Below are positions 26,494 through 58,050 of a stretch of 64,000 nucleotides of DNA, one piece after another. Numbering within the stretch: position 1 is the stretch's first letter; each line of letters begins with the position of its first letter. This DNA comes from a virus: the IMG/VR virus record IMGVR_UViG_3300045988_184227; one strand, 5' to 3'. Below the pieces are notes generated by a model, which was given only the letters and a program-made list of their open reading frames with translations, was not told the origin of the DNA and did not search any database. Made by a program: the position numbers and the translations under genes.

Positions 26494-26515
26494 TTAAGAA
26501 AGGATAATTTTAAAA

Positions 26516-27466
26516 ATGGTATTGACAAAAGAATTGGCTATTTACTTGGATAAATTGTTAAAAATTAATGATATTTATAGTTCCAAACTAAAGGAAAATC
26601 ATAGTAATGTTGGGGCTCAGTTTTCAACTGGGGAGACAAATATTTTTATTAACATTTCTGATGGTAAAGTGAAATTAGAGCTTGAGGATAGTGGATCTAC
26701 AATTTCAACGGCACCGGGAAATCGTATGAAAGTCTTAAAAGACAACGAAGGCGATACTTTATTAAATCAAGAAAAAATCCCTTCTACTGAGCTTTATTTC
26801 AATCAAGCACAGAAACTTTCTGAATTTATTTCAGTAGAAGAGTATGAAGTTGTTATTAGTAAATTGGTCGATTTTGCAAACGATTCAACAAAGTCCAGAA
26901 TTGCAGATAACAATTTTGTAGATATTGAAAAGATTGACAACGTTTTTGATCCAAAACTGGAAGAGGTTTTAAAAAATCTTTCCTGGTACAAAGGTTATGA
27001 TCTCGAGTCTTACTTAACCTTGTTGGATAAGCGTTCTTGGGAGATTAATTTCTTCAAGCACGCAAAAGAAAAAATGTTTTTCCCGGTTATACCAACACCC
27101 TTTGCGGTTGTTTTTGGGATCGGTATTGGAATTATTATGCTATCCGAAGAAATGTTCTTCTATTATGGTTTAGGTAGTATATCTTTCTTTTTGATTTATG
27201 AGTTTTTCTTATTTAAGAAATGTAAATTTTGCAGAAAAGTTTCAGAAATGTCTGAAGAACAAGGTTTTTCTGTTAGGTCTGTAAAAGACATTTTATCTAT
27301 TAATGAAATTAAGATTGGTGGGTTAACGAACCTTATTTTTTCAGATTATCTTTTGGAGAAGATGAAATTCTGGATTAATGATAGAAAGTATAAATACAAA
27401 TGGTCAGCCTTTAGTGGCGATTATAAACCAAGTTACGAAAGTTTACAAGAATATTATTCACTGTAA
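26516..27466 (+). CDS. Hypothetical membrane protein
   Basis: Two hydrophobic helices near residues 205-235. Terminator at 27476-27504. Confidence 0.5.
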   Translation: MVLTKELAIYLDKLLKINDIYSSKLKENHSNVGAQFSTGETNIFINISDGKVKLELEDSGSTISTAPGNRMKVLKDNEGDTLLNQEKIPSTELYFNQAQKLSEFISVEEYEVVISKLVDFANDSTKSRIADNNFVDIEKIDNVFDPKLEEVLKNLSWYKGYDLESYLTLLDKRSWEINFFKHAKEKMFFPVIPTPFAVVFGIGIGIIMLSEEMFFYYGLGSISFFLIYEFFLFKKCKFCRKVSEMSEEQGFSVRSVKDILSINEIKIGGLTNLIFSDYLLEKMKFWINDRKYKYKWSAFSGDYKPSYESLQEYYSL

Positions 27467-27527
27467 TAAAATATAGGAATATCAAGTTTGATATTCCTTT
27501 TTTAAATTTGATATATAGGCTTATTTC

Positions 27528-27582
27528 TGATATAATATAAGAAAGAATTAAATGCTGAATTAAATTCAGTTGAAAGAAAGGA
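27528..27582 (+). promoter_or_regulatory. Cassette leader: TGaTATAATATAAGAAAG promoter, CTGAATTAAATTCAG palindrome, SD
   Basis: TATAAT at 27531-27536. Palindrome at 27554-27568. GAAAGAAAGGA at 27572-27582. ATG at 27593. Confidence 0.6.
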
Positions 27583-27592
27583 ATTTAAAATA

Positions 27593-28597
27593 ATGGTTAA
27601 AAAGTCTAATGAAATTAAGGATCCTAAAATTGATGTTTTTAAACAATTGCAAACTTTTTCAAAAAAATCTGTTAGTGATGTGGCAACAATTTTGGAAAAC
27701 GACGAATCTTTTATGGGGGCGTTAAATACCTTAATTAAAAATTGTTCTTATTTTTTAAATCTCAAAAACGTTGATACTCAAGAAGGAAAATTGCTTGTTG
27801 AAAATTTAAATTTAGTTCCTGAACTAGAAAAAGCAATTGGTGAAATTACAATTTCATTTGATGAGCGGTTTGTGACAAGAAATAATTTTTACGTTCACGA
27901 AATTAAAAATTTAAAAATCAACATTCCCCAAAATACAAATCCCAATATCAAAACAATAATTACTGAAAGATTTTCAAAAGTAAAAGGTGATCTCTTAGAA
28001 ATTAATGTTTACGATATAAAAAAAAGCCCTTCACAACGAGCAAAAAAAAGTGAAATTGAAAATTTTTTACTTAAGAAAATTAAAAGAGGATTATATCCTT
28101 TTAATATTATTTTCCGTGATAAGTGGATTGAAACAACCACAAAACTTATTCCACTTTTGATTGACAATGATGGACAGCTTTACACAGATAAGAGTTATAA
28201 ATTTCAAAAGGAATGTATTAAATTCGGAAATTTACAAATTGGACTAAATACTTTAGGAACTTACTCTTCAAAATCAAACGGGCTGTTCTTTAATTATTTA
28301 TGTAATAATCTTGATCTTAATAAAAAACTCTTATTAGAATTTTATGCCGAAAAGATAATCAAATACGCAGTTAAAAAAGCCTCGGAAGTTTTAATTTTGA
28401 ACGATCCCTTTACAATTGATGATGTTCGAAAGGGTAACGCTAAACTTGAATTGATTTCTGATGAGAAAATAAAAGAGCGTCTTAAATTTAATCATAACGT
28501 ATTAGGTCTCAAAGATTTCATCAAAAATGAAAAAGATCCAAAACAAATCGAACGATTTGCTGAAATTATTGCAGAGTTGTTAAAGGGTAACGCCTAA
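27593..28597 (+). CDS. Paralog family A member 1 (unknown function)
   Basis: Shares NTNP, YPFNIIF, LLIDNDGQL and C-terminal DPKQIERFAEIIAELL motifs with 29921, 30878, 31944 and 33028. Confidence 0.6.
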   Translation: MVKKSNEIKDPKIDVFKQLQTFSKKSVSDVATILENDESFMGALNTLIKNCSYFLNLKNVDTQEGKLLVENLNLVPELEKAIGEITISFDERFVTRNNFYVHEIKNLKINIPQNTNPNIKTIITERFSKVKGDLLEINVYDIKKSPSQRAKKSEIENFLLKKIKRGLYPFNIIFRDKWIETTTKLIPLLIDNDGQLYTDKSYKFQKECIKFGNLQIGLNTLGTYSSKSNGLFFNYLCNNLDLNKKLLLEFYAEKIIKYAVKKASEVLILNDPFTIDDVRKGNAKLELISDEKIKERLKFNHNVLGLKDFIKNEKDPKQIERFAEIIAELLKGNA

Positions 28598-28680
28598 GAA
28601 AACTGAATTAATTCAGTTTTCTTTTTTTATAATTTTAAAAATAAATTACTGAGCAAGCTCAGAGAAAGAAGGAACCAACA

Positions 28681-29226
28681 ATGACAAAACAATTTAAAGC
28701 TCAAAAGAAATCTATCGAAACATTCGCTCTCCAATATGATGGTCATAACACTGAATTGGTATTGGATTTGTTAAATAAAAACAAATCAGAACCGGCTATT
28801 CTCGAAGAAAAATCAAAAACCATTTTGATTACTAAAACTTTTGGGGATAAAAAACAACCAATTTCATTACCGGTGAATAATTGGATTTTATTAGATGTTG
28901 ACGGAGTATCTTACTGGTCTGTCGATCCTGAAATTTTCTCTAAAACATACGAAAAAGTTGAGGGAGATACTTACAAAAAAGTACCAATTCAGATCGATGT
29001 GATTGAATTTTCTTCTTTAAAAGATGAAGACATCCAGGATGTTCTGAATTTCATTGGAGAAGCAACTCAAACGACTGAATCAGTCAAAGAAGTGGGGTAT
29101 ATTTCAATTGACACTCTAGAAGGCAAGGAAAATATGTTTCAAACAGATATTCTTGCTCGTGGGGTAAAGGGCGAACTTTACCCAATTAAAAAAGAAAACT
29201 TCGATATCATTTTTGAAGTTTTGTAA
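28681..29226 (+). CDS. Hypothetical protein
   Basis: Own leader with CTGAGCAAGCTCAG palindrome plus SD. Terminator at 29238-29268. Confidence 0.5.
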   Translation: MTKQFKAQKKSIETFALQYDGHNTELVLDLLNKNKSEPAILEEKSKTILITKTFGDKKQPISLPVNNWILLDVDGVSYWSVDPEIFSKTYEKVEGDTYKKVPIQIDVIEFSSLKDEDIQDVLNFIGEATQTTESVKEVGYISIDTLEGKENMFQTDILARGVKGELYPIKKENFDIIFEVL

Positions 29227-29328
29227 ATAAAATTGAAGGGCACACGAGTGTCCTTTTATTTTTATTCTATAATTAATTCAGAATTAAAATAAATCCGATC
29301 AACTTAATCGGGGAAAGAAGGAAATAAT

Positions 29329-29826
29329 ATGACAAATTTTGACAAAAAAGCAGCTGTTGATATGCTAAAAAAATCAACATCAGTTCGCAAGTCTATTATG
29401 GCTATGCGTAACCGTGTGGTAAACATCACTAATGATTTTAATAAATCGAAAGTGGTGAAAAATCACACAAACTCACCAATGTTTATCGTCGGTTCTGCCG
29501 CAACCGACACTAATTTTAACATTGGTGAAGATCTTTTAGCAAAAGCGCTAAAAGACTCCAAAGGTTCTCTTGGAACTACAAAGACATTATTTTTAATGTC
29601 TGTTAATGGAGTGATTAAACCAATCACAAATCCATTCTTTGGAGTGGTTCGTGATGGCGATGTTGTTAACCGCCTTCACCCACTACTCGGATCTATTGTT
29701 GTCGACTTCGATAACAAAGATCATTCAAAATTGTTCATCGATTTTGCGTTCAACAAAAACGGAGTTGGTTTCAACGATGTTATTGACGCATTGGCTGACG
29801 ATGTTGTCAAGTTGATGAATAAATAA
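29329..29826 (+). CDS. Hypothetical protein
   Basis: Leader CCGATCAACTTAATCGG palindrome plus SD. Terminator at 29829-29856. Confidence 0.5.
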   Translation: MTNFDKKAAVDMLKKSTSVRKSIMAMRNRVVNITNDFNKSKVVKNHTNSPMFIVGSAATDTNFNIGEDLLAKALKDSKGSLGTTKTLFLMSVNGVIKPITNPFFGVVRDGDVVNRLHPLLGSIVVDFDNKDHSKLFIDFAFNKNGVGFNDVIDALADDVVKLMNK

Positions 29827-29920
29827 AAAACGAGGGGCGGCACCCTCTTTTTTTATTGAAAAAAAGTACGAATTTTGATATAATAAATTAAAAGAATAAA
29901 AAAAGAAAGAAGGTTTTACA

Positions 29921-30787
29921 ATGACAGCAAAACTTAATAAAAAGCTAGAATTTTTACGTAGCGGAAGCGAGCAGGATCTCCTGAAAGAGTTCAAGAAGAA
30001 CAAAGCTCTTATCAAACGCTTGGGTACTGTTAGACAAAAATTCGATGAGGTTTTTGAAGAGGCTAAAGAGCGTGCCCGGTTAGATAACAGTCGAAAGGGA
30101 GATAATGGAATTATTATGTTCCACGACAATCCGGAATTGATTTTTGAATTTCTTGAAACTATCCAAAAAATGAAAATTGAAGTTGATTACCAAAAGGACG
30201 AATTGGTTCTTGGTATGTTTGATACATTCGGATTTAAATCAGAACCAAAAACAAAACACACATCAAACGATTTTGAAATGGAATTTCCCGGATATAGAAT
30301 CAAAAACATAATGATTACATTCCCTGAAAACACAAATCCGAAAATTTCTGACTACATCATCAATATTTCAAAAAATCTTGATGATATTGAAGAAAATTTC
30401 ATTATGGAAGATCGAACTTTTTATTATTCTCCTTTTGAGAAGGATGAAAAAAAACGGGTTTGTGATTCTATTCGATCAATGATTAACAATCAGGGTAATA
30501 TAACATCTTTACTTTACAAATATCGTCCAAGTATTGTAACAGTTAGAATTACTTTATCTGTAGATAAAGATGGTAAATTATTTGTTACAAATAATAAAAA
30601 TCGAACTACTATTTTGGATTTTAATTTGTTTGTCGTGAGTAACGCACCTCATTTTATAGTAAATGCAATCGACCCAGATATCAACAATGATTTCTTTGAC
30701 TATACTTTTAGAAAAATTTCAGAAGATGATTTCTTGTTGAAGTTAATAAAAATCTTCAAAAAAGAAGCTAAAAAAGCTCTCTTCTAA
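29921..30787 (+). CDS. Paralog family A member 2 (divergent, shorter)
   Basis: DNPELIFEFLETIQKMKIEVDY and FPENTNPKISD motifs align to the other family A members. Confidence 0.55.
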   Translation: MTAKLNKKLEFLRSGSEQDLLKEFKKNKALIKRLGTVRQKFDEVFEEAKERARLDNSRKGDNGIIMFHDNPELIFEFLETIQKMKIEVDYQKDELVLGMFDTFGFKSEPKTKHTSNDFEMEFPGYRIKNIMITFPENTNPKISDYIINISKNLDDIEENFIMEDRTFYYSPFEKDEKKRVCDSIRSMINNQGNITSLLYKYRPSIVTVRITLSVDKDGKLFVTNNKNRTTILDFNLFVVSNAPHFIVNAIDPDINNDFFDYTFRKISEDDFLLKLIKIFKKEAKKALF

Positions 30788-30877
30788 GAAGTAGACGCAG
30801 AGATTGAGAGAGTTGATTTTTGTAATCAATTCTCTTTTATAATTAAAGAAAAATATATAGAGAAAGAAGGTGCTCGA

Positions 30878-31837
30878 ATGAAAAGTTCGAAAGATAATAA
30901 CAATGAAGTTTTAGATTTATCTTTGTCACTTAAGAATATTGCAAAAATGAGTGATGAGGATATTTTATCAAAAATAGGTGAGGCTAAAATTGTAAAAGAA
31001 ATCTATGATGAATTTGCAGATTTGTACGCACGATTGAATTACACTGATGATTTTGCAAAGATGTTTGCTGAAAAACCGGAATTAATCTTTGAGTATGAGA
31101 AAGCGATTAAGGATTTAAAATTTGATTTTAATATCGTCGAAAACTCAAGCAATACTTTTGAAGTTGGCAAGTATGTTTCTGTAATATTTCCAGAAAAGAT
31201 TCGTAGAGAATTTAAGGATAAAATTAATACTAAAGTTAAGGAAATTTCCAATGGTTTTAGTTGGGAACATTTTACAGTTTCATTTCGTGTGAACTCGAAA
31301 TATGACTCTGAAGATAAAGTCGTAACCTCTTTATCTAAGTATTTGAAAGAAAAATTATCCTTTACTAACCACATCTATCATTCTGAAAAATCGTCACATC
31401 ACTATCTTAAAACAACTACTGTTTATCTTGATAAAAATAAAATTTTATCTTTGGACTTCAAACATCATCTTATTGTTTTATTAAATTTGAAGATTGGCGT
31501 TAACGATAAAAACAATTTTTTATCTCGTGATAATAAGTTATTTTTAAAAGCGTTTATTAACGATGAAGATGATGGAATTTTATTAAAAGATTATTGTGAT
31601 AAAGTTAGAAAAAAGGCTCTAGAATTAAGCGCAAAATTTTTAATTGAAGAGGATATCTTTTCCTTTAAAGATTTAGAAGCTAGAACAGCCTCATTAGACT
31701 ATTTCACTGATAAAAAAATAAAAAGCGAATTGCGTTACAATAATAACTTCTGTGCTATTAAAGAACTTTTGTATAACGAATCAAAAGAAAATAAAAAACG
31801 TTTCGCTGATATTATTACAGAATTATTGTTAGAATAG
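30878..31837 (+). CDS. Paralog family A member 3
   Basis: EKPELIFEYEKAIKDLKFDF and C-terminal KKRFADIITELLLE. Terminator at 31860-31890. Confidence 0.6.
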   Translation: MKSSKDNNNEVLDLSLSLKNIAKMSDEDILSKIGEAKIVKEIYDEFADLYARLNYTDDFAKMFAEKPELIFEYEKAIKDLKFDFNIVENSSNTFEVGKYVSVIFPEKIRREFKDKINTKVKEISNGFSWEHFTVSFRVNSKYDSEDKVVTSLSKYLKEKLSFTNHIYHSEKSSHHYLKTTTVYLDKNKILSLDFKHHLIVLLNLKIGVNDKNNFLSRDNKLFLKAFINDEDDGILLKDYCDKVRKKALELSAKFLIEEDIFSFKDLEARTASLDYFTDKKIKSELRYNNNFCAIKELLYNESKENKKRFADIITELLLE

Positions 31838-31886: not shown

Positions 31887-31935
31887 TGTTATAATTTAAG
31901 AAATATTTGAAAACTGTAATAGTTTTAGAAAGAAG
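31887..31935 (+). promoter_or_regulatory. Cassette leader: TGtTATAATTTAAGAAAT promoter, AAAACTGTAATAGTTTT palindrome, AGAAAGAAGG SD
   Basis: TATAAT at 31890-31895 with an extended TG. Palindrome at 31909-31925. SD at 31926-31935. ATG at 31944. Confidence 0.6.
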
Positions 31936-31943
31936 GTGAAAAA

Positions 31944-32963
31944 ATGGTAAAGACTACCAAAGATGAAACAAACTTTATCAATTTAGTTAATAGGATGAAG
32001 GTTCTTGCTAATAAGAGTGTTGAAGAAATTTACGAAGACTTACTTGATAACGATCCGTTCAACAATGCTATTGATTATATTTTGACTTGTTTGCGCTCAT
32101 CTTTAAAATCAAATTCAAAAGATAGGGATATTCGTTTATTAGCTAACAATCCTCATCTTATATTAGAATATGACAAGATTGTAAGTGAACTTGAAATTTC
32201 TTGTGATTTTGAAGACGGGCCTTATTCTATCATATCATCTCCCTGGAGTAATGATACTTACGAGACAATTTTAATTAAAAATCTTTTAGTAAGTGATATT
32301 CCATCTGATATCAATAAGAAGATGAGTTTATCGCTAGAAAAACGGATTCAAATTGCAAAGAGAAAGGTTTCTCTTATAAAGAAAATAGATCTCAACATTG
32401 ATCCATATAATAGTGAGACTCCAGAAGAAGTAACCCACAATGACGTTATTTCTAAGGTATCAAAAATGATGAAGGAAGAGTTATCTCCATTCAATATATT
32501 TCTCGGTATTGAAAGGTTTTCTAAACATATTTCTTTATTTGTTGATAGTGATGGCAATTTAGGCAATGTTTTCGAATCCAACACACAAGATTACACAAGG
32601 TTTTGTGATGTTGATGTCTATTTATACCCAAGAAGTCCAGATCTTTTAAAAACATCTTACATCAAAATGTTGGAAGATAGATATGGAGATTCTTATGATG
32701 ACATTGTTATATATTATGCAAAAATAATCAAACTAGAAGCTGAGATGTACCTATCCAAACTTTTGCTTGGTGGTAATAAATTTACTCTTGACAATGTTAA
32801 AACCGGGCAGTACGGGCTTGGTATTCTAAGCGAAGGAAGAATTGAGGATGAGATTCGCAATCGTGTTGCATTTAAACAGCTAAAATCTCTAATCCAGTAC
32901 GAAAATGATCCTGAACAGAGAAAAAGATTTGCAGAGGCTGTCTCCAGATTATTACAAGAATAG
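31944..32963 (+). CDS. Paralog family A member 4
   Basis: NNPHLILEYDKIV, SPFNIFLGI, LFVDSDGNL and DPEQRKRFAEAVSRLLQE. Confidence 0.6.
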   Translation: MVKTTKDETNFINLVNRMKVLANKSVEEIYEDLLDNDPFNNAIDYILTCLRSSLKSNSKDRDIRLLANNPHLILEYDKIVSELEISCDFEDGPYSIISSPWSNDTYETILIKNLLVSDIPSDINKKMSLSLEKRIQIAKRKVSLIKKIDLNIDPYNSETPEEVTHNDVISKVSKMMKEELSPFNIFLGIERFSKHISLFVDSDGNLGNVFESNTQDYTRFCDVDVYLYPRSPDLLKTSYIKMLEDRYGDSYDDIVIYYAKIIKLEAEMYLSKLLLGGNKFTLDNVKTGQYGLGILSEGRIEDEIRNRVAFKQLKSLIQYENDPEQRKRFAEAVSRLLQE

Positions 32964-33027
32964 AGAGGTACCTCTCTATTCTTTTCTTATAATTTAAAAA
33001 AATAAAAATTTTAGAAAGAAGGAAAAA

Positions 33028-34071: not shown

Positions 34072-34167
34072 AAGAGAATAGAGAGTTATACCTCTATTCT
34101 TTTTATTTTTCTTATAATTTAATAAAAAATTCCTAGCAAAGCTAGAGATAGAAAGAAGGTAGCTATT

Positions 34168-36265: not shown

Positions 36266-36640
36266 TTATGAGAAGATTACTTGTGGGAAGTAGTCCCCAG
36301 TGGCACGATCAAAGTGCCACAATGTAAGGGGAATCCCTTTGTGTGCAGCAAGTTTGATTACTGCCGCAGTCAAGGAAGTCAAACCTGTAACGTACAGGTC
36401 GATTCCCTTGTCGGACTCCCAAACAACTTGGTCGCCCATTGATAGTTCTGCATTAGCCAATGTAGTTTTTGCTACTCGTTCAAAACTGAGTAGTGGCAAG
36501 ATGGCCTCTGCTGCCATCTTATCCATAGCTTTGACGTCTGTTACGTCGTTTATGTTAGATGGAAATACAAATCCATCCATCGCAGGCATTCCTTCTCCTG
36601 CGTGACGGTCTGTAAGACCGAGTTTGATAAATTGTTTCAT
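36266..36640 (-). CDS. Hypothetical protein, GC-rich relative to its surroundings
   Basis: About 48% GC locally versus about 33% in flanking sequence. No confident motif. Confidence 0.5.
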   Translation of the reverse strand: MKQFIKLGLTDRHAGEGMPAMDGFVFPSNINDVTDVKAMDKMAAEAILPLLSFERVAKTTLANAELSMGDQVVWESDKGIDLYVTGLTSLTAAVIKLAAHKGIPLTLWHFDRATGDYFPQVIFS

Positions 36641-38925: not shown

Positions 38926-38967
38926 AATTTGATTACCTCCCTTCTTTCTATATTATTTTTACTTTCC

Positions 38968-47900: not shown

Positions 47901-47975
47901 ATTTCCCTCTTTCTACTGAAATAAATTCAGATTTTTTAATTTCTTAAATTATAAAAGAGGAGGGAGGATACCCCC

Positions 47976-49781: not shown

Positions 49782-49885
49782 TATTTTTCCTTCTTTCTAA
49801 CTGAATTAAATTCAGAATTATTATTTCTTAAATTATAATAGCAAGAAGTTGTCTCCTGAAATAAAAAAAGTAAAAGGAAAACCTT

Positions 49886-51631
49886 TTACTTTTTAAGATG
49901 ATCCGCCATTTTGACGATGAAATTGGAAAGGTATTTTGCATTAGGAAAGTTAGATAATGCTCCATTTTCAATACCGTATTTAAAAAACTCAAATACTTTT
50001 TGATAATCACCATCCTCTTCTTCTGTGAAGTTGATATCTAGATCATCAAAATTGTTTTTTGTTACTGCCGCAAAAGTTTCTAAACATTTTTGGCTCTGTC
50101 TAAAACGAAAATCTGATGTATCAAATAAAATAGATGTAAAACCAGATATGGATAAAGAAACCTTCTGTTTTTCTTTGAATTTGATATTCTGCCCCAACTC
50201 TTTTGCAAAACAAATTGCCCACTCATCGATTCTAGAAGATAAACTACTCACATTAAGAAATTCAAATTCAATCACGCCAATGTAATTTAAGGCTTTTAGA
50301 GGTAAACCGACCCTTTTGTGAAGAGTCCCCTTAATCATTTTGAACGTTTCAATATTTCTATTGACATAAAAACCAAATGATGTGCTCTCTTTATCAAAAA
50401 TGCAAATCTCATTCAAAAATTCTTCTTTATTAGATTCAATTAATTTTCCAAAAAACAAATCTATAAAATGTTCTGTTATAAACATTTTAAGTTTTTCTCG
50501 AATAGATTCCATCTCGGAGGTTAAATTATTAGCCTTAATATCCAATATTTTTGAAGCAAGCACATTCATCGTAGATTCATCAAAATTCTCGGATAAGAAT
50601 TTCATTAACGTATATAACAACGTTCCCCGATTTTTATCGAAATTGTGTGATCCAATCTGTTTCAAAAAATCAGTAAACAATAACAACTGATCAGAAAGAT
50701 GTTCATCTTTAATATCGTTCTTAATTTTAAAAACGGAATCATCCTGACAATATTCCATTACTTTAGAATTTAAAAATAATTCTTCGTAAGTATTAAAGAT
50801 AAAGTCTTTTGTTATTTTTAACAAAGAAAATTTGTCATTATACCCTTTACCATCATCAACAAAAGAATCAATCATTGTTGAACGAATAGTTTCTAAGAAA
50901 GTATCAACTTCTTCCTGAAATGAAGAGGTGTAATTTCTGTCTTCTGTATAGGATAAACTAAATTTTCCGCCAAACTGCAATTTATTAATATTTTTCCTTA
51001 TTAATAAATTGTAAACAGATTCACGTTCTTCCTTAGTCATTAAAATTAGTGGAGTATTATATAAATAATAGACGCTGGTGCCACCCAAGTTGTATATTTC
51101 TTTTAAAGGAACTAGCGTTCTTTCCTCATTCAATTCGGAATAGAATGTTGAGTTCTCCAATAATAACTTTTGAGACAAATCTTTCAACTGTTTTGTTGTA
51201 AAAGTAATAAGAAGTTTTTGTACATACTTCTCAACTAGCTCTTCATCTTTAACAAATAAAGTGTAGTCTTTAATTTCATAAAGTTCAACGAAACCCTTAT
51301 TGTTTCTTTTGCCATCGATTTCTAATTTCCCAATCATTAAAAGATCCAAAGATAAATACTTAGGGTCGGGATAAGAATAACCGTAACAATCCTCTGCGAA
51401 AACAAAAAACTTCTTCTCCTTAAAAGAGTACCAAACGTAATGAGTTTTAAATCTAATATTCCGGCACGGGTAAGTATAAGGTCCACTAGATACCTTTTGA
51501 TTAAACCGTTTAACCAAATTTTCGACACATTCCTGGTCAAAATTGTAATTCTTATCTTTAAGCAATTTAGACAACTCTTTAATCGCAAGAACACGGCGAT
51601 CATCTTTGATTAAAGTTGAATTTACTACCAT
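49886..51631 (-). CDS. Paralog family C member 3
   Basis: VWYSFKEKKF. C-terminal YGIENGALSNF. Confidence 0.6.
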   Translation of the reverse strand: MVVNSTLIKDDRRVLAIKELSKLLKDKNYNFDQECVENLVKRFNQKVSSGPYTYPCRNIRFKTHYVWYSFKEKKFFVFAEDCYGYSYPDPKYLSLDLLMIGKLEIDGKRNNKGFVELYEIKDYTLFVKDEELVEKYVQKLLITFTTKQLKDLSQKLLLENSTFYSELNEERTLVPLKEIYNLGGTSVYYLYNTPLILMTKEERESVYNLLIRKNINKLQFGGKFSLSYTEDRNYTSSFQEEVDTFLETIRSTMIDSFVDDGKGYNDKFSLLKITKDFIFNTYEELFLNSKVMEYCQDDSVFKIKNDIKDEHLSDQLLLFTDFLKQIGSHNFDKNRGTLLYTLMKFLSENFDESTMNVLASKILDIKANNLTSEMESIREKLKMFITEHFIDLFFGKLIESNKEEFLNEICIFDKESTSFGFYVNRNIETFKMIKGTLHKRVGLPLKALNYIGVIEFEFLNVSSLSSRIDEWAICFAKELGQNIKFKEKQKVSLSISGFTSILFDTSDFRFRQSQKCLETFAAVTKNNFDDLDINFTEEEDGDYQKVFEFFKYGIENGALSNFPNAKYLSNFIVKMADHLKK

Positions 51632-51761
51632 TTTTTCCTTCTTTCTAGCTGTAATAATAACAGCGAAATATTATTTCTTTAATTATAACAGACTTGAATT
51701 TGCTTTTATAATTAAAGAAATAATAAATCTGAATTTATTTCAGTAGAAAGAAGGTATTAAA

Positions 51762-53057
51762 ATGAAAGAAACAGGAAATTTACTGTTGGAAATAGACAAG
51801 ATGGTTCTTGACGCTGTTAACAATGGCGCAAAACTATTGCTACCAACAGAAAATCTCTTTCCAAAATCAATAGTAGAGGCTGGCGTTGGCGGAAATTCAA
51901 CAATTATTTTATTTTGTTTTGTAGACAATAATTTCTATCTAACATCAAGTAGTTTTGATTATCCGCTTGATAGATTCGTTGCGGTTGCCTACGGTAACAG
52001 TGTTGATGATGTACTATATAATAGCACACACGTATCCATCGAAACTCTTCGTGTTGAATTGAATTATCGAGCTACATCCTTGGATTCTGTTGTAGACGAA
52101 CACGCCTTTAATCTTATGAACATTTTTAAAAACTCACCTCAAAGTGATGAGGGTAATAAAAAGCGCATTAAGATTCTGGAGATAATTCCCTTATCCGACG
52201 AAGAAAATTATAAATATCCATACAATAAGGATATTCGTAAAAAATTCGTAGATCATTTTACAAAATTTTTCTTGGATGAATGCGCAGACGAATTTTACGG
52301 AGCTCTCAGCTGGTATTATAACAATGCAGAAACCAAAAACTTTTCTTTGACAGGTTTAACATTGGAATTGTTGCAAAATGAAAAAAATTGGGATTCGTTT
52401 TTCTGTAAAATTGGATATCCAATCGATGATCTTGTTATTGAGGGAATATTGATGAATTTATTTGAAACAAGAGATGATGTTTGCAATTTTTTAAATAAAT
52501 TTATTGATTACCACAAAAGAAAGGGTTTTACTCCAACATTCAACGCATTCAATTTCTCTCTTTTTGTTGATTATCTATCTGTTTATTTTTCAGATGATAA
52601 ATACTATCTGGATTTGTTTAAGAAAAATAGTTTTAAACTCATTCTAGACTTTGTTTTGAAGAATCATTACGACAAAAATAATGATTTTATTTACGAAAAA
52701 ATAACTGAATATAACAAAAATATTGATGTGAGCCTTTGGACTGAATTTATTGAAGAAGGTATCCTGGAAATAAAAGGTCTTTCGGAAGAACTGGCTTATT
52801 TATCAGATAGAAAAATAGAAGATTTTTATGTTAAAATTTTTGGAAAGGTTGATAAAGTACTCTGTTCAAAAGAACTTTTGAATTATTATATTTTTCTAAA
52901 AATTTACAAAGGTATCAACGATTTAGTTGATAAAGACAAATCAATAGAACAACAAATCAAGGACAAGAAAAATAGAGCTATTTTGAGTAAAAAAATAAAA
53001 TCTATTAACGACATTCTTGCCGGCTTGAAATTCTTGGAAAAGAAAAATTTTATCTAA
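51762..53057 (+). CDS. Paralog family B member 3
   Basis: LLLEIDKMVLDAV...IILFCFVDNNFYLTSSSFDYPLDRFVAVAYG. Leader CTGAATTTATTTCAG plus SD at 51729-51752. Confidence 0.6.
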   Translation: MKETGNLLLEIDKMVLDAVNNGAKLLLPTENLFPKSIVEAGVGGNSTIILFCFVDNNFYLTSSSFDYPLDRFVAVAYGNSVDDVLYNSTHVSIETLRVELNYRATSLDSVVDEHAFNLMNIFKNSPQSDEGNKKRIKILEIIPLSDEENYKYPYNKDIRKKFVDHFTKFFLDECADEFYGALSWYYNNAETKNFSLTGLTLELLQNEKNWDSFFCKIGYPIDDLVIEGILMNLFETRDDVCNFLNKFIDYHKRKGFTPTFNAFNFSLFVDYLSVYFSDDKYYLDLFKKNSFKLILDFVLKNHYDKNNDFIYEKITEYNKNIDVSLWTEFIEEGILEIKGLSEELAYLSDRKIEDFYVKIFGKVDKVLCSKELLNYYIFLKIYKGINDLVDKDKSIEQQIKDKKNRAILSKKIKSINDILAGLKFLEKKNFI

Positions 53058-53090: not shown

Positions 53091-54649
53091 TAAAAGGTGA
53101 TTTTATTGAATGTCGACTCTTCCTTAACCATCCAATAATCATCATCCCAGTCAAGATCATCCTCATTCAAAGAGAAACCTGAATCATCTAAAACCTTAGA
53201 AAATTCAATTTTTGGTTCTAACTTTCCATAATCAGATTTCGCCATAAGTTCCATCTTTTTAATTAGAAATTCAATATCCATTTTGTATATTTGGAGATCG
53301 ATAGAATCTTCTGAAACTAATTGAGAAAATAACTCACAAGACTTTTGATGTTCAAGTAAGAAATTCTTTGCTGTTTCTGATTCAGAATAGAAACGGAGCT
53401 CATTATTGATTTTTGATAATCCCTCTTCTCCACTTCGACCAAAAGTTTTAAGAGTGAAAACATCGACTAACGAAAAGTTCTTATAAGCAAATTTAACATC
53501 ATCCTTGATTTCAAGGAGTTTTTCTAAAAATTTATTATAAATCTTTAGACTGACAAGTGTTTTTCTTAAATCATCAAGAGTCGAGCTTGAATGATAACCT
53601 GTAAACTTATGAGCCCAATCCTTCGACAATTCCCCAGAAAAATCCTGGAACAAACAGATAGGTTTATTCTTTTCGCTGAGAACTTTTTTAAGCGCAATAA
53701 CTAGTCTGCTGATCAAATCATCCAAAAAGTCTTCGTCCACCCCATACGTTGAATTTGGTTTAAATTCAACAAAATTCAACAATCTAATTAATTCTGCATT
53801 AAAGCGGAGATATTTATCATCTTCGATGTTTGAATCTGATATTAGAGAGTTTGCGTATTTATAAAAGCAAAAGTCTAAAAGTTCTTCAAATTCATCTTGG
53901 TGATTCTTTTTAAATTGACAAAAAGATTTGATATATTTTAATATATAAACAATATCACTATCTCTGTAACGAACGTCTTCGACAAAATCGATTTTGACAT
54001 ATTCACGTATAGAGTCGATAATCGTATCCTTTCCAAAGAAAGATAGTAGAACCTTAGAGCTGTAATTAATTTCGTGCTCATTTTTTTGATTTTTTAAAAT
54101 ATTAGACCAAGAGGCGGCTGGAGATGAAACCAAAACACTCTTTAGCTTGTCTACTAGGATTTTTTCAAGCCCTGAAGTATCATCAGAATTGATAATTGAA
54201 TCAATTGATTGAAATTTAGTAACATAATCAATATAGTTAATTTCATTGCTGATCGTGCTATACTGCTTATTCAATCCTTCATTGTTAAATTTAGTACCAT
54301 CATCATAAACATTTGATAACTCCTCAATCAAAATGCTCTTTAATTTTGAAATCCGATTTTCCTTATTGTTATTACCGGATAAATCAGCGATGACACTTAG
54401 ACCAGTAGATATAGATTCTAAACCATCAGGTCTATACTTTGTATTGTAAAAATTATTTTGTTGGGCGTTTGCGATTTCAATTTTTTTTGATTTTTCATTA
54501 ATGAAATACAACTTTTTCTTGTTGCCATCATCAATAACATCGATATCGCCAATGACAAACTCCCAATCGCTAGGATTACCTAACATCACAACCAAATCTC
54601 TAATATGCTGGAGATATAGAGATAAAACGCTGTTTTTACTTTGTTTCAT
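53090..54649 (-). CDS. Paralog family D member 1
   Basis: WEFVIGDIDVIDDGNKKKLYF aligns with CKFIFGDLEILKDGGGEDLISV of 56706-57968. Confidence 0.55.
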   Translation of the reverse strand: MKQSKNSVLSLYLQHIRDLVVMLGNPSDWEFVIGDIDVIDDGNKKKLYFINEKSKKIEIANAQQNNFYNTKYRPDGLESISTGLSVIADLSGNNNKENRISKLKSILIEELSNVYDDGTKFNNEGLNKQYSTISNEINYIDYVTKFQSIDSIINSDDTSGLEKILVDKLKSVLVSSPAASWSNILKNQKNEHEINYSSKVLLSFFGKDTIIDSIREYVKIDFVEDVRYRDSDIVYILKYIKSFCQFKKNHQDEFEELLDFCFYKYANSLISDSNIEDDKYLRFNAELIRLLNFVEFKPNSTYGVDEDFLDDLISRLVIALKKVLSEKNKPICLFQDFSGELSKDWAHKFTGYHSSSTLDDLRKTLVSLKIYNKFLEKLLEIKDDVKFAYKNFSLVDVFTLKTFGRSGEEGLSKINNELRFYSESETAKNFLLEHQKSCELFSQLVSEDSIDLQIYKMDIEFLIKKMELMAKSDYGKLEPKIEFSKVLDDSGFSLNEDDLDWDDDYWMVKEESTFNKITF

Positions 54650-54777
54650 TATTACCTTCTTTCTGTAACTTTTAAAGTTACTATTTTTTCTTTAATTATA
54701 ACAGTCTTGTTTATTCTTCTATAATTTTAAAAATATTGATATTGAGTGTATACCGCACTCTAGAAAGAGGGAATGAA

Positions 54778-55767
54778 ATGGTAAAAACAAAGAAAGTATT
54801 TTCAAAAACGTTAGCTGCACTTGACATCCTTGGAGTTCCTTATATTGTAAAAGGACGAAATGCTCAGTTAGTTGATCACGATTCGCTTCAAATTACCCTT
54901 GAGGGTGAATACAAAGACGCTTGGTTCCGATGGTCAACAAAAGAAGGTGGCCGTGGGGTCGATACTCTTGTAACCTATTTGATGAAACAGGGGATCGTTG
55001 ACAAAAAAGCAGCGCTTAATTTCTTAGGCGGAAAGACCAACGGAAAGTCTTACAAACTTAAAGAGGTTGATCTAAAAATTGCAGAAGATTCCAACTTCGA
55101 CGAGATTGTGTATGACCCGAACGCTTGGCAAACTAAAGAGTATCTGATTGATGAACGCAAACTAAATGAAATGTTAGTAGATGTTGTATTCAAACGAGGA
55201 CTTATTTTAGAAAACGCCTCTGGAAACTTAGTCTTTTTGCAGCTGGATAAGGACGGAAATCGTATCGGAGCTGAGGTTATCGGGACACATCCTGACAAAG
55301 ATGGTAATCGTATTCGATTAAATATGCCAGGATCTAAAGGGTTCTTTTATATCCTTGGAAAGGACTGTGATTCTCTTAAAGATGTAGAACGGATTGTCTT
55401 TTGCGAGGGTGTTATCGACCTCTTATCATACGTGGAACTAATCGGTTATTCTGATTCTGTACGAGATAAGATTCCTTACAGCATTCCAAAATCAGAATCT
55501 AAGACTATGTATGTTGCAATTGGTGGATCATTAACAAAGGTTGAGCGAATCATCGAACAACTAACTACTGGATTTGGTTTGAATCTCAAGGAGTTACACC
55601 TTATCATTGCAACTGACAACGATGAGGCAGGAAATAAAGCTTATGACTTATTTAAGGAACATTTTCCTAACTCTATCAGAGAAAAACCGGATTCACGGAC
55701 TGTACCTGTAAAAGATTGGAATGATTTGCTTAAACTGATTAAGAAGGGAAGTGATTCTGATGAGTAA
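54778..55767 (+). CDS. Toprim-domain protein (DnaG/TraC-like primase fold). Start refined to the MVKTKK Met.
   Basis: IVFCEGVIDLLSY (Toprim Glu) and IIATDNDEAGNKA (DxD). Leader GAGTGTATACCGCACTC palindrome plus SD. Confidence 0.6.
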   Translation: MVKTKKVFSKTLAALDILGVPYIVKGRNAQLVDHDSLQITLEGEYKDAWFRWSTKEGGRGVDTLVTYLMKQGIVDKKAALNFLGGKTNGKSYKLKEVDLKIAEDSNFDEIVYDPNAWQTKEYLIDERKLNEMLVDVVFKRGLILENASGNLVFLQLDKDGNRIGAEVIGTHPDKDGNRIRLNMPGSKGFFYILGKDCDSLKDVERIVFCEGVIDLLSYVELIGYSDSVRDKIPYSIPKSESKTMYVAIGGSLTKVERIIEQLTTGFGLNLKELHLIIATDNDEAGNKAYDLFKEHFPNSIREKPDSRTVPVKDWNDLLKLIKKGSDSDE

Positions 55768-56665
55768 AACAGAAGAGAAGAAACTATCCCAGAACATTAA
55801 GAAAGAAATCAATCGATACACGGTTAAAAAGATTTTTACAACTGAAACTGCAAAGGATTTGGCTGAAAAGTTGTTTATTCTTGCGGGTGGCGATCAGGAA
55901 CCTTACAAACTTAAAACTGGAAAGAATAAAGGTTTGTTCCGGATTCCAAAGGCTCAAGCATACGATATCATTATCGAATATTGGGATTATAACATTGCAC
56001 TCCAGTTTGCACGAAATGAACTGATGACAGTATTACCTAACGGTAAGTATAAGTACGATAAGTACAATCAGTATCGAACGGCGGAGCGCAATTATCGTCT
56101 AGAATCACAACAGGAAAATTTCTGGGCCAATCGTCAAGGTAACTTAGACCAAACCATTCAACAAATTAACCGTCGCTACTGTATCTCACGTCGAACACGT
56201 GAGAAACTGGTAGTAGAGATGGCGCTTAATCAACTTAGCGTGACACACTTCAATGCACTACGAAATGATTTTATCGAGTATGAGATTTTTAAAAACAATT
56301 CGGAAGTGTTCCCAACGTTGAAACATAGTGCCGGTTTGGACTATTTTGTTGATGGCGTACCATACGATCAGAAAGTTTCTCGTAGCCTCGGTGCTATGTT
56401 TGAAAAGGATTACGATTCGCACGATGAGGCAGTAAAAGCAGCTCGAAATAATCCTAGCAAACTTGCACAAAGTCTATTTGAAAATCAGGATGTTTACCGA
56501 CTTGAAAAGGGTGATATCTGTAACCGACTTTACGTTGTTTACTTGGATGAGAGTAGCTTTGAAAACATCAAGTTTAGCACACGAAGGATTACAAACAAGG
56601 AGGTGACAATGGTTCACTTCCCGGACAAACCGGATTGCTACAAGGCAATGGTGGTTTTCGTCTAA
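55760..56665 (+). CDS. Hypothetical protein
   Basis: Overlaps the stop of the upstream gene. Start ambiguous between 55751 and 55760. Confidence 0.5.
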   Translation: MSKTEEKKLSQNIKKEINRYTVKKIFTTETAKDLAEKLFILAGGDQEPYKLKTGKNKGLFRIPKAQAYDIIIEYWDYNIALQFARNELMTVLPNGKYKYDKYNQYRTAERNYRLESQQENFWANRQGNLDQTIQQINRRYCISRRTREKLVVEMALNQLSVTHFNALRNDFIEYEIFKNNSEVFPTLKHSAGLDYFVDGVPYDQKVSRSLGAMFEKDYDSHDEAVKAARNNPSKLAQSLFENQDVYRLEKGDICNRLYVVYLDESSFENIKFSTRRITNKEVTMVHFPDKPDCYKAMVVFV

Positions 56666-56705
56666 AACACAAAAAAGAAAAGAGGTTTTGCCCCTTTTCT
56701 TTTTT

Positions 56706-57968
56706 TTATTTTAATTTTAATAAAGCCTCGATTGCGTTGATAATCTTATCGTAATTCTCATCTTTAACAATTAAAGAATCATAATCAATAATTGCTGTAT
56801 AAAATTCAGATAGGAAATCAAACAAGCGGTTCGTCCCTTCAATCAAATCAAAGAACTTTTTACTTTCGAGTTGAATCAACGTATCTGTTGCTTTTACCAA
56901 TCCAATCATAAATTTAGTTCTACTATTTTTTGATTTTGCTTTGGATAATTCTCTAAACTCTACGGTATCAAGATCAACTTGCTTTTTAACTCCAAATTCG
57001 TTTTCAATATCGATAATCAAATAAACGAAATCATCTTTATTTTCAGAATTTGCATAGTAGAAGTCGTGAATAAAAGAGTGTTGTCGTTTCATTTGGAATT
57101 TTTTCCAAAACTCATCGGTGGCACATTCAAATCCGTGATACTTATATATCAACTGAACTAATCCGTAATCCAATTGAAGCTTGGAAGCATATTCAGGCTT
57201 TAGAATATTATCTCGAATATAATCTTTGGGTAGATTTTTGATTCCATTTTCGTAATCCATCCAATCAGTCGGATAGTAAGATTGTGGAGTAATAATCGTT
57301 TTAGAAATTTCGTACTCAAAATTCTTAATCGAATTATTTTTAACCCAATCAAGATAGTCTGTATCAATAAATAGATTGTTTTTTTCAAAACGTTCAGATT
57401 TTGATAGTAGACTTAAATAGCTGGATAATTTATAGTGTTTACTATCACTAAGACCCCTTAACCATTCCAAAAAACGACTGTTCGCTTTTAAAATTTCATC
57501 TACAAACTCATCATCCTCAAGCTCCACCGACCTATCTGTTCGCTTTTGAATAACGAATTGTAAATCATCCTTGTCCGCTTCAAGAAAGATGGTATCAATA
57601 ACATCCTTTGTTAATTGATTTAAGGTGAAATATTTCAAGGTTTTCTTTAAATAGTTATTTAGAATCTCCTTTTTCTTATCAATAGGATGATTGACATAAA
57701 ACTCGATATCTAAATATAAACCCAAAGGTGTACAATCCGAATTTAATCTGTTGATATATTTATCAATCGGATCACTGCTATTTTTATATCCGTTTTCGTT
57801 TTTAAACAAATAAGAGTTTAAAACTCGAGAGTAGTGGACGGAAATGAGATCTTCGCCACCGCCGTCTTTCAAAATCTCTAAATCGCCAAAAATAAATTTG
57901 CAATCATCAATGGCTTTTTCAGCTTGATTTAGGATAAAGAAATTATTATCCTTCGTGTTTTTTACCAT
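56706..57968 (-). CDS. Paralog family D member 2. Start refined to MVKNTKD.
   Basis: RBS AGAAAGAAGG 8 nt upstream of the Met at 57968. N-terminal FGDLEILKDGGG motif. Confidence 0.55.
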   Translation of the reverse strand: MVKNTKDNNFFILNQAEKAIDDCKFIFGDLEILKDGGGEDLISVHYSRVLNSYLFKNENGYKNSSDPIDKYINRLNSDCTPLGLYLDIEFYVNHPIDKKKEILNNYLKKTLKYFTLNQLTKDVIDTIFLEADKDDLQFVIQKRTDRSVELEDDEFVDEILKANSRFLEWLRGLSDSKHYKLSSYLSLLSKSERFEKNNLFIDTDYLDWVKNNSIKNFEYEISKTIITPQSYYPTDWMDYENGIKNLPKDYIRDNILKPEYASKLQLDYGLVQLIYKYHGFECATDEFWKKFQMKRQHSFIHDFYYANSENKDDFVYLIIDIENEFGVKKQVDLDTVEFRELSKAKSKNSRTKFMIGLVKATDTLIQLESKKFFDLIEGTNRLFDFLSEFYTAIIDYDSLIVKDENYDKIINAIEALLKLK

Positions 57969-58020
57969 TATTTTCCTTCTTTCTAAAAGTATTAAACTTA
58001 TTTTCTTCAATTATAAGAGA

Positions 58021-58050
58021 AAAAAAGAGAACCCGTTTGGATTCTCTTAA
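58021..58050 (-). terminator. Rho-independent terminator downstream of the flotillin-like gene
   Basis: AAGAGAATCCAAACGGGTTCTCTT hairpin followed by a T-run on the minus strand. Confidence 0.65.

Follow-up and report, generated by a model that had tools for sequence, protein, structure and literature searches.

Stereotyped single-gene expression cassettes with an optional stem-loop next to the Shine-Dalgarno sequence in a likely Inocle-type element of oral streptococci

The 64,000-nucleotide stretch of DNA analyzed in this study (IMG/VR virus record IMGVR_UViG_3300045988_184227, in the following called the window) is likely to originate from an Inocle-type giant plasmid-like extrachromosomal element of oral streptococci, rather than from a phage. 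Many of its genes are preceded by one stereotyped control region, referred to here as cassette, in which TATAAT, T(T/A)AAGAAA, a spacer, the Shine-Dalgarno (SD) sequence (TA)GAAAGAAGG, 5-9 nt and the start codon follow each other in this order. The spacer of many cassettes additionally holds a short palindrome directly upstream of the SD. This architecture is spread over a whole family of related elements, and the ability of the palindrome arms to pair with each other is under selection.

Layout and extent of the cassettes

An earlier note on this DNA had described a genome-wide architecture with the same layout in front of at least 25 genes between positions 26500 and 58050. The stereotyped layout is confirmed in outline, while the observation as a whole was confirmed in part and the interpretation attached to it supported in part. 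When a cassette was defined as TATAAT followed by 18-39 nt, GAAAGAAGG with at most one mismatch, 4-12 nt and a start codon, the window contained 27 cassettes, which are located on both strands as the note had stated. Only 22 of them lie within 26500-58050, with the others at 3.5 kb and 60-61 kb, so that the common layout stands but not the count given for this interval. A search for TTATAATWTAAGAAAW with up to two mismatches yielded 24 matches in comparison to 2.8 expected ones, a number reached by no shuffled sequence. All eight palindromes that had been quoted are present, one of them (GAGTCTTTTGACTC at 3552-3565) outside this interval. The architecture is not genome-wide, however, as a block at 8-24 kb (clpB-like, gyrB-like and other genes), the TnpB gene and a flotillin gene are free of cassettes and use canonical GGAG-type SDs. 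Genes with a cassette are mostly ORFans, together with some DNA-metabolism genes, and most cassettes are flanked by intrinsic terminators.

Outside the window, the cassette pattern was found in metagenomic contigs of human oral and saliva origin, with a length of up to 392,691 bp among the matches listed, and in one further IMG/VR contig. The cassette-bearing contigs listed include saliva long-read assemblies with the prefixes BNJS-BNJV, which belong to the saliva long-read data of Yahara (PMC7782811). For one unrelated-looking contig of the element family, nucleotide similarity to the window was limited to the cassettes. Pooling the window and related oral metagenome contigs resulted in at least 453 distinct cassettes, taken from the matches listed for a pattern that includes the SD. 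In these 453 cassettes, the distances between -10 element and SD follow a bimodal distribution (peaks at about 19 and 34 nt), and the hairpin can hence be regarded as an insert of some 15 nt that is optional.

All 27 window cassettes contain a perfect TATAAT. Ten of them carry a TG extension, whereas matches to a -35 box do not exceed the background; this is what had been claimed before, namely that most cassettes lack a -35 box and some are TG-extended. Upstream of the -10 element, cassettes without TG extension have T-rich tracts. Judged from its sequence, the predicted promoter reads as sigma-A type, -35-less and often TG-extended, with the upstream A/T tract supplied by the preceding terminator, and T(T/A)AAGAAA probably covers the discriminator and an A start site. 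The earlier note had taken the conserved extension of the -10 element as a sign of a dedicated sigma factor or phage RNA polymerase. As the TATAAT is of the canonical sigma-A type and often TG-extended, the host holoenzyme would suffice; nevertheless, a dedicated sigma factor is conceivable, given that Inocles were reported to encode a sigma factor annotated as "RpoS" (PMC12340149).

The presence of terminators between the genes, as likewise claimed before, is supported by two scans that found 33 terminator-like sites versus 7.9 expected and 30 versus 8.6 expected from shuffled sequences, an excess of about fourfold. In many co-directional units the T-tract of the terminator continues directly into the -10 element, while other units are arranged as back-to-back divergent promoter pairs. 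True terminators of the element have stems of 10-15 bp and uninterrupted T-runs. The terminator of the gene at 27593-28597, located at 28596-28623 (+), carries CTGAATTAATTCAG at its tip, which is nearly identical to the 5′ hairpin palindrome of the same gene (27555-27569) but has a 4-nt loop. Several terminators of related contigs are likewise centred on CTGAA-N5-TTCAG.

The SD of the cassettes is unusual. An exact GAAAGAAGG was found in 399 of the 453 pooled cassettes and the canonical GAAAGGAGG in two, a count that is somewhat biased because the SD was part of the retrieval pattern; in the unbiased set of 27 window cassettes the respective numbers are 20 and zero. The 3′ tail of Firmicute 16S rRNA ends in CCUCCUUUCUA. 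To this tail, UAGAAAGAAGG (the SD with its UA prefix) is complementary at 10 of 11 positions, the one mismatch being internal, and the predicted duplex of the cassette SD (-11.9 kcal/mol) is about as stable as that of neighbouring canonical SDs (-11.6 kcal/mol). According to these predictions, the cassette SD would be functional, distinct and conserved, and not simply the best complement of the tail. An altered anti-SD of the host was considered as the cause of the unusual SD and rejected, since the non-cassette genes of the window use canonical GGAG SDs.

With respect to the palindromes, a stem of 5 bp or more is found in 15 of the 27 window cassettes and a weak 4-bp stem in two, whereas the remaining 10 possess a short, unstructured leader; a hairpin in every cassette, as described before, is therefore found for the former but not for the latter. 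Stems comprise 5-7 bp, instead of the perfect palindromes of 8-17 bp reported previously, and enclose loops of 3-7 nt (up to 8 nt among all hairpins), with predicted free energies (dG) of -2.7 to -7.1 kcal/mol in the window. They are longer than stems in shuffled spacers. The gap between stem and SD measures 1.8 ± 0.9 nt (modal value 2, most often the dinucleotide UA) in hairpins that had been pre-filtered to lie at most 4 nt from the SD, and an unfiltered scan peaks at 1-3 nt as well. The start of the hairpin, on the other hand, lies 16.1 ± 3.0 nt after the -10 element (range 8-24). Assuming a transcription start about 7 nt past the -10 element, the stem would begin 1-17 nt into the transcript (mean about 9), and within about the first 5 nt in 28 of 217 hairpins from the window and related contigs. 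The palindromes had been described as fixed at the mRNA 5′ end and flush with the SD; the anchoring to the SD (1-3 nt) was borne out, the one to the 5′ end (8-24 nt after the -10 element) was not, and a location at the very 5′ terminus is not what the sequence predicts. Furthermore, the SD lies outside the hairpin and is not occluded by it, which leaves the proposed translational gate without a structural basis. On the sense strand the hairpin is followed by UAGAAAGAAGG and not by a U-tract, in contrast to a Rho-independent terminator. A search of the whole window against Rfam 15 at gathering thresholds yielded tRNA matches only.

Many palindromes differ between genes, with more than 100 distinct stems, but their description as gene-specific holds only in part. 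The family CTGRA-N5-TYCAG, with a loop of strictly 5 nt, occurs in 86 of the 453 cassettes and makes up 36% of the 217 hairpins, and five window hairpins are CTGAA-N5-TTCAG. The distance of the CTGRA-family hairpins from the -10 element is 17.8 ± 1.8 nt, and in 63 of the 86 cases a gap of exactly 2 nt separates them from the SD. A second family, RCUG-UAA-YAGY, accounts for about 14% of the hairpins, and about half of all hairpins belong to no family. Co-duplication of hairpin and gene was rejected, as some window paralogues carry a hairpin and others do not, and the CTGAA hairpin stands in front of genes that are not homologous to each other.

Base pairing in the leader

Comparison of the sequences indicates that selection acts on base pairing and not on sequence, which favours a hairpin in the transcript. 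The stems are almost always perfectly Watson-Crick paired, with three mismatches among 1238 pairs. As variable stem pair, 72 distinct sequences of the CTGRA family have AU in 35 cases, GC in 34, GU in three and AC in none, even though the search for CTGRA-N5-TYCAG permitted AC at this position. The covariation score of this pair exceeds those of all 500 shuffles and of every slid register. Half-sites of the same 15-mer are paired in 83 and mixed in three cases within cassettes, versus 153 paired and 54 mixed cases elsewhere (Fisher p = 1.4e-6). Among orthologues, the stem was kept while the loop was altered in sequence (35 comparisons) or in length (13 comparisons), in total in 48 of 82 comparisons; one example is the series CTGAG-CAAG-CTCAG, CTGAG-CAATG-CTCAG and CTGAG-TCAAG-CTCAG. 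Some orthologues carry wholly different stems, and 22 of 74 orthologue groups are mixed, comprising members with and without a hairpin.

Changes in loop length together with the enforced perfect symmetry make a dimeric protein binding to double-stranded DNA unfit as a general explanation, whereas a hairpin in the transcript would explain both. In line with this, the hairpins taken together show neither the fixed spacing nor the conserved half-sites of a dimer operator; in the CTGRA subclass the spacing is fixed, but pairing is enforced, unlike in the copies elsewhere. The covariation, the enforced pairing within leaders and the changes of loop and stem between orthologues agree with the earlier argument that variable sequence at a conserved position points to a role at the RNA level. 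The accompanying argument against a single DNA-binding protein is supported as far as a general explanation is concerned, while the 36% of hairpins in one sequence family leave room for a class-specific factor.

One expected signature of a sense-strand RNA, an excess of G·U over A·C, is weak and weighs against the RNA-level reading: the ratio is 3 to 0 in CTGRA stems and 13 to 11 in orthologue comparisons, and the 18 to 9 at loop-closing positions is explained by base composition alone. The conclusion of a role at the RNA level is thus carried by the covariation, the loop-length changes and the location of the hairpins.

Possible functions of the stem-loop

From the sequence we infer that the stem-loop is transcribed, beginning at the start site predicted above, and that it has a stabilizing function. 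The reading we favour, at a probability of roughly 0.45, is that of a modular stem-loop of the 5′-untranslated region (UTR) which would act together with the extended SD as a barrier to mRNA decay. A large gene class of the element would be expressed from standardized single-gene units, in which the T-tract of an intrinsic terminator would lead into the -35-less, often TG-extended TATAAT and the T(T/A)AAGAAA start region with a probable A start, followed by a short A-rich leader, the invariant polypurine SD (UA)GAAAGAAGG and, after 5-9 nt, the start codon. In about 60% of the units, a module of about 15 nt located 1-3 nt upstream of the SD would fold into a 5-7 bp stem-loop in the mRNA, with a largely free stem sequence but conserved pairing ability and position. 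This stem-loop and a ribosome at the strong SD might form a 5′ barrier against 5′-to-3′ and 5′-end-dependent decay by RNase J and RNase Y, two enzymes that streptococci possess, and the barrier would set mRNA lifetime and output gene by gene.

Leaders with these properties are known from Bacilli, where a stem-loop and/or a strong SD in the 5′ leader protects whole mRNAs from RNase J1 in the case of aprE, ermC, cryIIIA (STAB-SD), the SP82 polypurine stabilizer and hbs (PMC3997798; PMC5737220). Cassettes resemble them in combining a stem-loop with a very strong polypurine SD in a short leader, in the irrelevance of the stem sequence and in the lineage with RNase J and RNase Y (PMC3997798; PMC5737220). 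Unlike in these stabilizers, the stem of the cassettes is tied to the SD and not to the 5′ terminus, is weak and optional, stands in front of hundreds of genes of one element and is known from sequence alone. The cassette SD offers extended complementarity to the Firmicute 16S tail near the predicted mRNA 5′ end, as is the case in STAB-SD-like protection. The 5′-terminal stem-loops of Escherichia coli ompA and papA are protective 5′-UTR hairpins of any sequence as well, but operate in a different nuclease system (RNase E/RppH). They must sit within a few nt of the 5′ end, where the cassette hairpins are not predicted to lie.

Several points weigh against a decay barrier. With a start about 7 nt past the -10 element, 5-12 unpaired A-rich nt are predicted ahead of most hairpins, and classical 5′ stabilizers are known from work on model mRNAs to act only at the 5′ end or within a few nt of it. 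It may be speculated that RNase J, by trimming, or RNase Y, by cleavage, would shorten the transcript as far as the stem base and thereby resolve this difficulty. Moreover, the stems are weak (-3 to -7 kcal/mol), 37% of the window cassettes are free of a hairpin, and 36% of the hairpins share one sequence that is at the same time an element-wide DNA motif, which hints at a specific factor.

This motif was found far beyond the leaders. CTG-N9-CAG occurs 60 times in the window (for example at 1726, 6838, 9233, 20401, 26820, 34244, 39415, 46625 and 58061) in comparison to 10-13 times for other frame-preserving spacings, and CTGDA-N5-THCAG 27 times versus 0.41 expected; window genes holding the motif include the clpB-like, gyrB-like and polymerase-like ones. 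Across about 1 Mb of family sequence, 186 copies of CTGAA-N5-TTCAG (3.8 expected) and 63 of CTGGA-N5-TCCAG (0.8 expected) were counted, with 0-7 for other spacings, and 992 copies of CTG-N9-CAG contrast with about 200 each for the frame-preserving N6 and N12. Within open reading frames (ORFs), 323 sites of CTGDA-N5-THCAG were located; the encoded proteins are unrelated, yet 77% of the sites share one frame (nCT GAA ... TCA Gnn). The half-sites of these intragenic copies vary independently, and CTG-N9-CAG was retained in 13 of 15 comparisons between orthologous sites within genes. A codon- or peptide-based cause was rejected, since N6 and N12 keep the frame as well and are five times rarer. An origin of the motif from the host was not supported either: two small controls, the Streptococcus phage SM1 and 8 kb of S. 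oralis sequence, showed no enrichment. Going by its distribution, CTG-N9-CAG would be a DNA-level signal and could serve as binding site or methylation target. It may explain why so many leader hairpins use CTG...CAG arms, but not the hairpins in general. Like the KorB OB sites of RK2, this 15-bp palindrome is located both near promoters and within genes, and its form is similar to that of the LexA box CTG-N10-CAG; CTG-N9-CAG differs by its far higher density (about one per kb), its N9 spacing, its mostly coding location and its presence in only a third of the hairpins.

It would fit these observations if the hairpins, or at least the CTGRA-N5-TYCAG class, were specific binding sites and hairpin identity defined regulons or temporal classes, an explanation that we regard as unlikely. 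The site could be a DNA operator of an element-encoded dimer, centred at about +18, or an RNA operator beside the SD for a translational repressor or activator, comparable to those of T4 gp43, RegA and the MS2 coat protein. Such recognition would account for the recurrence of one hairpin with a strict 5-nt loop in 86 of 453 cassettes and ahead of non-homologous window genes, for its narrow placement relative to both -10 element and SD, and for the existence of the second family; the element-wide over-representation of the 15-mer (49-80-fold, with the N5 spacing only and also inside genes) suits recognition by a protein, too. About half of the hairpins, however, are without family among the more than 100 distinct stems, and orthologues replace stems and alter loop lengths, neither of which a dimer on double-stranded DNA would tolerate. 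Half-sites elsewhere mix freely, whereas the variable position in cassettes is always paired, suggesting an extra structural constraint on the 5′-UTR copies, and no candidate binding protein was identified. The RNA operators of T4 gene 43, RegA and MS2 are alike in that a small hairpin directly precedes the ribosome-binding site (RBS) or overlaps with it; those are single sequence-specific sites for one protein each, whereas the cassettes have a multitude of stems and an SD outside of the stem.

Position is far tighter relative to the SD than to the promoter, and this might alternatively mean that the hairpin boosts translation initiation, by coaxial stacking on the SD:anti-SD helix or by docking to the 30S platform, and in this way steadies the initiation complex on the mismatched SD. 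The hairpin would abut the extended helix where this arrives at the 16S rRNA 3′ end. The gap of 1-3 nt between stem and GAAAGAAGG is most commonly UA, which is complementary to the last two nt of the Firmicute tail CCUCCUUUCUA. Still, this is an argument from geometry, with the general Firmicute tail standing in for the mature 3′ end of the host 16S rRNA; cassettes without hairpin share the identical SD and spacing, and no obvious precedent turned up among the titles of a literature search. We regard a boost of initiation as quite unlikely.

A lack of function appears improbable. Palindromes might be by-products of template switching or module shuffling, which would produce nearly perfect stems (3 mismatches in 1238 pairs) and the gain and loss of hairpin blocks of about 15 nt seen between close orthologues, or by-products of selection for the CTG-N9-CAG DNA motif in leaders, given its roughly fivefold excess over N6 and N12 throughout the element. 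A neutral process, though, would not position palindromes at 1-3 nt from the SD in some 200 leaders independently of each other and at the same time keep the hairpin-less leaders clean, the DNA motif is present in only 36% of the hairpins, and stems persist while loops change in 48 of 82 orthologue comparisons.

Finally, the palindromes are highly unlikely to be antisense terminators that halt antisense transcripts before the promoter and the upstream unit: a scan does flag leader palindromes on the antisense strand at 29311-29295, 34146-34132, 28662-28649 and 36659-36672, where the U-rich complement of the A-rich leader would follow the palindrome, but their stems are short and AT-rich in comparison to genuine terminators with stems of 10-15 bp and unbroken T-runs, on its leader side the stem is bordered by T more frequently than by A, so that the antisense U-tract usually begins with an A and is interrupted, and leaders without hairpin are equally A-rich.

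Of the components of the favoured mRNA-decay barrier and its cassette, 5′ stem-loops, strong-SD stabilizers, extended -10 promoters and promoter- and terminator-dense arrays are individually known. What appears to be new is their fusion into one unit that is repeated hundreds-fold, has an invariant mismatched SD and an optional SD-flush hairpin, and is limited to one family of giant elements. Early or host-takeover modules of phages such as SPO1 and T5 consist of dense short units with near-consensus promoters, very strong SDs and intergenic terminators, and encode mostly ORFans. Cassettes resemble them in the dense succession of promoter, RBS and terminator; they differ by their location on a plasmid-like element and the absence of a -35 box, and the phage modules have neither the conserved start region nor an invariant SD with a mismatch nor a hairpin flush with the SD. 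Synthetic insulators (RiboJ, Csy4, designed 5′ hairpins) are also standard structured parts between promoter and RBS, but parts of the RiboJ and Csy4 type cleave or are cleaved, and nothing in the cassettes suggests cleavage. For practical purposes, the cassette provides a simple signature to find and delimit Inocle genes and contigs in metagenomes and allows transcription units and start codons to be predicted directly; its hundreds of copies also amount to a natural collection of insulated parts for gene expression in streptococci. Since orthologous cassettes with and without hairpin coexist, the contribution of SD-adjacent 5′ structure to mRNA decay and translation in Firmicutes is directly testable.

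Source element, individual cassettes and tRNA cluster

Inocles were first described in 2025 as giant circular plasmid-like elements of oral Streptococcus with a size of about 245-395 kb and a guanine-cytosine (GC) content of about 32% (Kiguchi et al., 2025; PMC12340149). They are present in most people, more than half of their genes are ORFans, and their cargo comprises tRNAs, many insertion sequences (IS), gyrase, a RecD-like helicase and mostly unannotatable ORFs (PMC12340149). They are lost in culture and hence missing from isolate genomes as well as from known plasmid and phage databases (PMC12340149). Neither promoter nor terminator nor Shine-Dalgarno occurs as a word in the text of this description, which does not treat the mode of gene expression (PMC12340149).

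The window shares with Inocles the oral origin, the GC content (about 33%), tRNAs, IS, gyrase, a RecD-like helicase and mostly unannotatable ORFs. Its genes include 23 tRNAs, an IS605-type TnpB, a gyrB-like and a RecD2-like gene and surface proteins with G5/SSSPR repeats, while most ORFs have no match in Pfam or PHROG. Synteny with the window, at an identity of 80-96%, was found for several saliva and oral contigs, the relatives having a length of 291-392 kb. One window protein was found with identical sequence in 38 collection blocks, those listed including human oral metagenome and contigs of up to 291 kb. The Inocle marker protein InoC has about 454 aa and a replication-relaxation domain (PF13814; PMC12340149). 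A Pfam scan covering 30 ORFs of the window yielded no match to PF13814; the remainder of the element lies outside the window. A megablast search with 10 kb of the window against phage records gave no match, and a blastn search with one cassette against plasmid and phage records gave chance AT-rich matches only. In 185,579 GTDB species representatives the cassette pattern produced just single chance matches in unrelated taxa, from which it follows that the source is not a catalogued bacterium. A jumbo phage, suggested by the 23 tRNAs and the IMG/VR contig, was rejected, as no structural or packaging genes were found and the Inocle description fits better. An alternative code with UGA read as glycine, as in oral bacteria of the candidate phyla radiation, was rejected likewise: real ORFs are without in-frame TGA, two of them stop at TGA, and the code is the standard one.

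The TnpB of the IS605 family is encoded at 39858-41150 (-) and has OrfB_IS605 and Cas12f-like TNB domains; copies with 80-88% identity are present on several contigs of the family, which fits the IS-rich nature of Inocles. Two surface-protein-like paralogues with 75% identity lie at 41445-43271 (+) and 61976-63814 (-), both without cassette and with a TTG start. The former matches Pfam G5 and SSSPR-51 and the latter, which was scanned against NCBIfam only, the SSSPR51 repeat; presumably these repeat families indicate a streptococcal or other Firmicute host. Three families of strongly diverged tandem paralogues (22-34% identity, no Pfam or PHROG matches, an own cassette for each copy) are located at 27593-34071 (+), at 43367-45492 and 51762-53057 (+), and at 45522-51631 (-). 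They suggest old and repeated duplication of these ORFans.

As for the individual cassettes, the one at 3528..3584 (-; -10 element 3579-3584, SD 3540-3548, ATG 3530) has the hairpin GAGTCAAAAGACTC at 3552-3565 (dG -6.5) and is divergent from a hairpin-less cassette at 3636..3682 (+) with a 23-nt spacer between -10 element and SD. A plus-strand series begins with 27531..27595, in which the hairpin CTGAATTAAATTCAG (27555-27569) precedes the SD GAAAGAAAG at 27572-27580 and the ATG at 27593. It continues with 28628..28683 (CTGAGCAAGCTCAG at 28649-28662, SD 28664-28672, ATG 28681), whose orthologues have loops of 4 and 5 nt, and with 29268..29331 (CCGATCAACTTAATCGG at 29295-29311, SD 29313-29321). 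No hairpin is present at 29879..29923 (+; spacer 20, TTGAAA as -35 box, TG-extended -10 element), 30838..30880 (+; spacer 18) and 32988..33030 (+; spacer 20), with the orthologues of the last being hairpin-free as well. Between the latter two, 31890..31946 (+) carries AAAACTGTAATAGTTTT at 31910-31926 (SD 31928-31936), and a polymerase-like gene follows the cassette at 34113..34170 (+), where CTAGCAAAGCTAG at 34133-34145 (dG -5.7) ends 5 nt before the SD at 34151-34159.

On the minus strand, the hairpin CCAGACAAGTCTGG (36659-36672) of the cassette at 36638..36701 is flush with the SD TAAAGAAGG, and that at 38206..38268 combines ACTGAATTAATTTCAGT (38230-38246) with the SD AAAAGAAGG. Hairpin-less minus-strand cassettes lie at 38923..38976, in front of a guanylate-kinase-like gene, and at 39523..39565 (spacer 18, TG-extended -10 element). 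The cassette at 43313..43369 (+) has a weak hairpin (AAACTTTAACAGTTT at 43333-43347, dG -0.6), the SD GAAAGAGGG and a TTG start, and 44205..44247 (+; spacer 18) has none. For 47256..47312 (-), the previously quoted 12-nt palindrome CTATTTAAATAG at about 47279-47290 forms a stem of 4 bp at most, and RNAfold predicted no stable hairpin (dG 0.0). The hairpin CTGAATTTATTTCAG is found twice, at 47916-47930 in the cassette 47898..47953 (-) with the SD GAAAGAGGG, and at 51729-51743 in the cassette 51707..51764 (+), which is divergent from 51629..51687 (-) with GCTGTTATTATTACAGC at 51648-51664. At 49779..49837 (-), CTGAATTTAATTCAG (49801-49815) is replaced by an unrelated stem in the orthologues. Further hairpins are GTAACTTTAAAAGTTAC (54665-54681, z -7.8) in 54647..54700 (-), GAGTGTATACCGCACTC (54744-54760) in 54720..54780 (+), upstream of a Toprim/DUF3991 gene, and the weak 4-bp hairpin AAGTTTAATACTT (57987-57999, dG -0.4) in 57966..58015 (-). 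The three distal cassettes have no hairpin: 60269..60316 (-) is the only one with a perfect TTGACA -35 box plus a TG-extended -10 element, 61006..61056 (-) precedes a thymidylate kinase gene, and 61078..61138 (+) is hairpin-less in spite of its long spacer of 37 nt.

The 23 tRNA genes are clustered on one strand at 332-8028 (-), cover 19 amino acids (Cys is missing) and include three tRNA-Met/fMet-type genes with CAT anticodon; a cluster of this size is unusual cargo for a plasmid-like element. Spacers of the cluster hold three stem-loops on the tRNA strand with unrelated stems of 7-12 bp and the identical loop AUUCUUUCCUUCUUUU: the first at 4741..4778 (-), with an 11-12 bp stem and a loop of 14-16 nt, the second at 4861..4890 (-) and the third at 5346..5381 (-), each with another stem. 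Such stem-loops are also present on two further contigs (L044 and L148), and a fourth stem variant with the same loop was found on BNJT01000771.1. When IMG/VR was scanned for the 16-nt loop, more than 120 unspecific matches were obtained, and in no case was the context comparable. The exact complement of the loop is AAAAGAAGGAAAGAAU, a generic cassette RBS that spans the SD, the spacer and the AU of the start codon. With the initiation regions of the 27 cassettes, the loop is predicted to form duplexes of -13.4 kcal/mol on average, whereas non-cassette genes reach -9.1 and random 28-mers -3.3 kcal/mol. These predictions suggest, as a lead only, that the tRNA-spacer RNAs are candidate anti-RBS RNAs or sponges, which would be released by processing of the tRNA precursor and aimed at the cassette genes. 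Together with CTG-N9-CAG, they point to control layers specific to the element.

Taken further, the cassette might be the cis half of an element-private, trans-controlled expression system in which the invariant, non-canonical SD GAAAGAAGG and the hairpin flush with it mark several hundred ORFans as one regulon, a proposal that we consider rather doubtful. Its controllers could be the tRNA-spacer stem-loop RNAs, factors reading hairpin classes such as CUGRA-N5-UYCAG, or the sigma factor of the element. If this were true, a giant plasmid would switch its accessory genome independently of the host genes, which use canonical SDs.

Two more segments of the tRNA cluster deserve mention. A full-length match to the ROOL RNA (RF03087, model positions 1-574) lies at 5447-6002 (-) between tRNA-Phe and tRNA-Met and scores 98.3 bits, just below the gathering score of 99.1 (E = 1.5e-20); the tRNA cluster thus hosts a non-coding RNA of the large, ornate type. 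The segment at 5141-5269, about 128 nt between tRNA-Glu and tRNA-Asp, is 90-94% conserved in four otherwise unalignable contigs (L136, L052, L119 and L065). It contains the T-arm-like GGTTCGATTCC, although ARAGORN and Rfam call nothing there, and may be a degenerate tRNA or another non-coding RNA.

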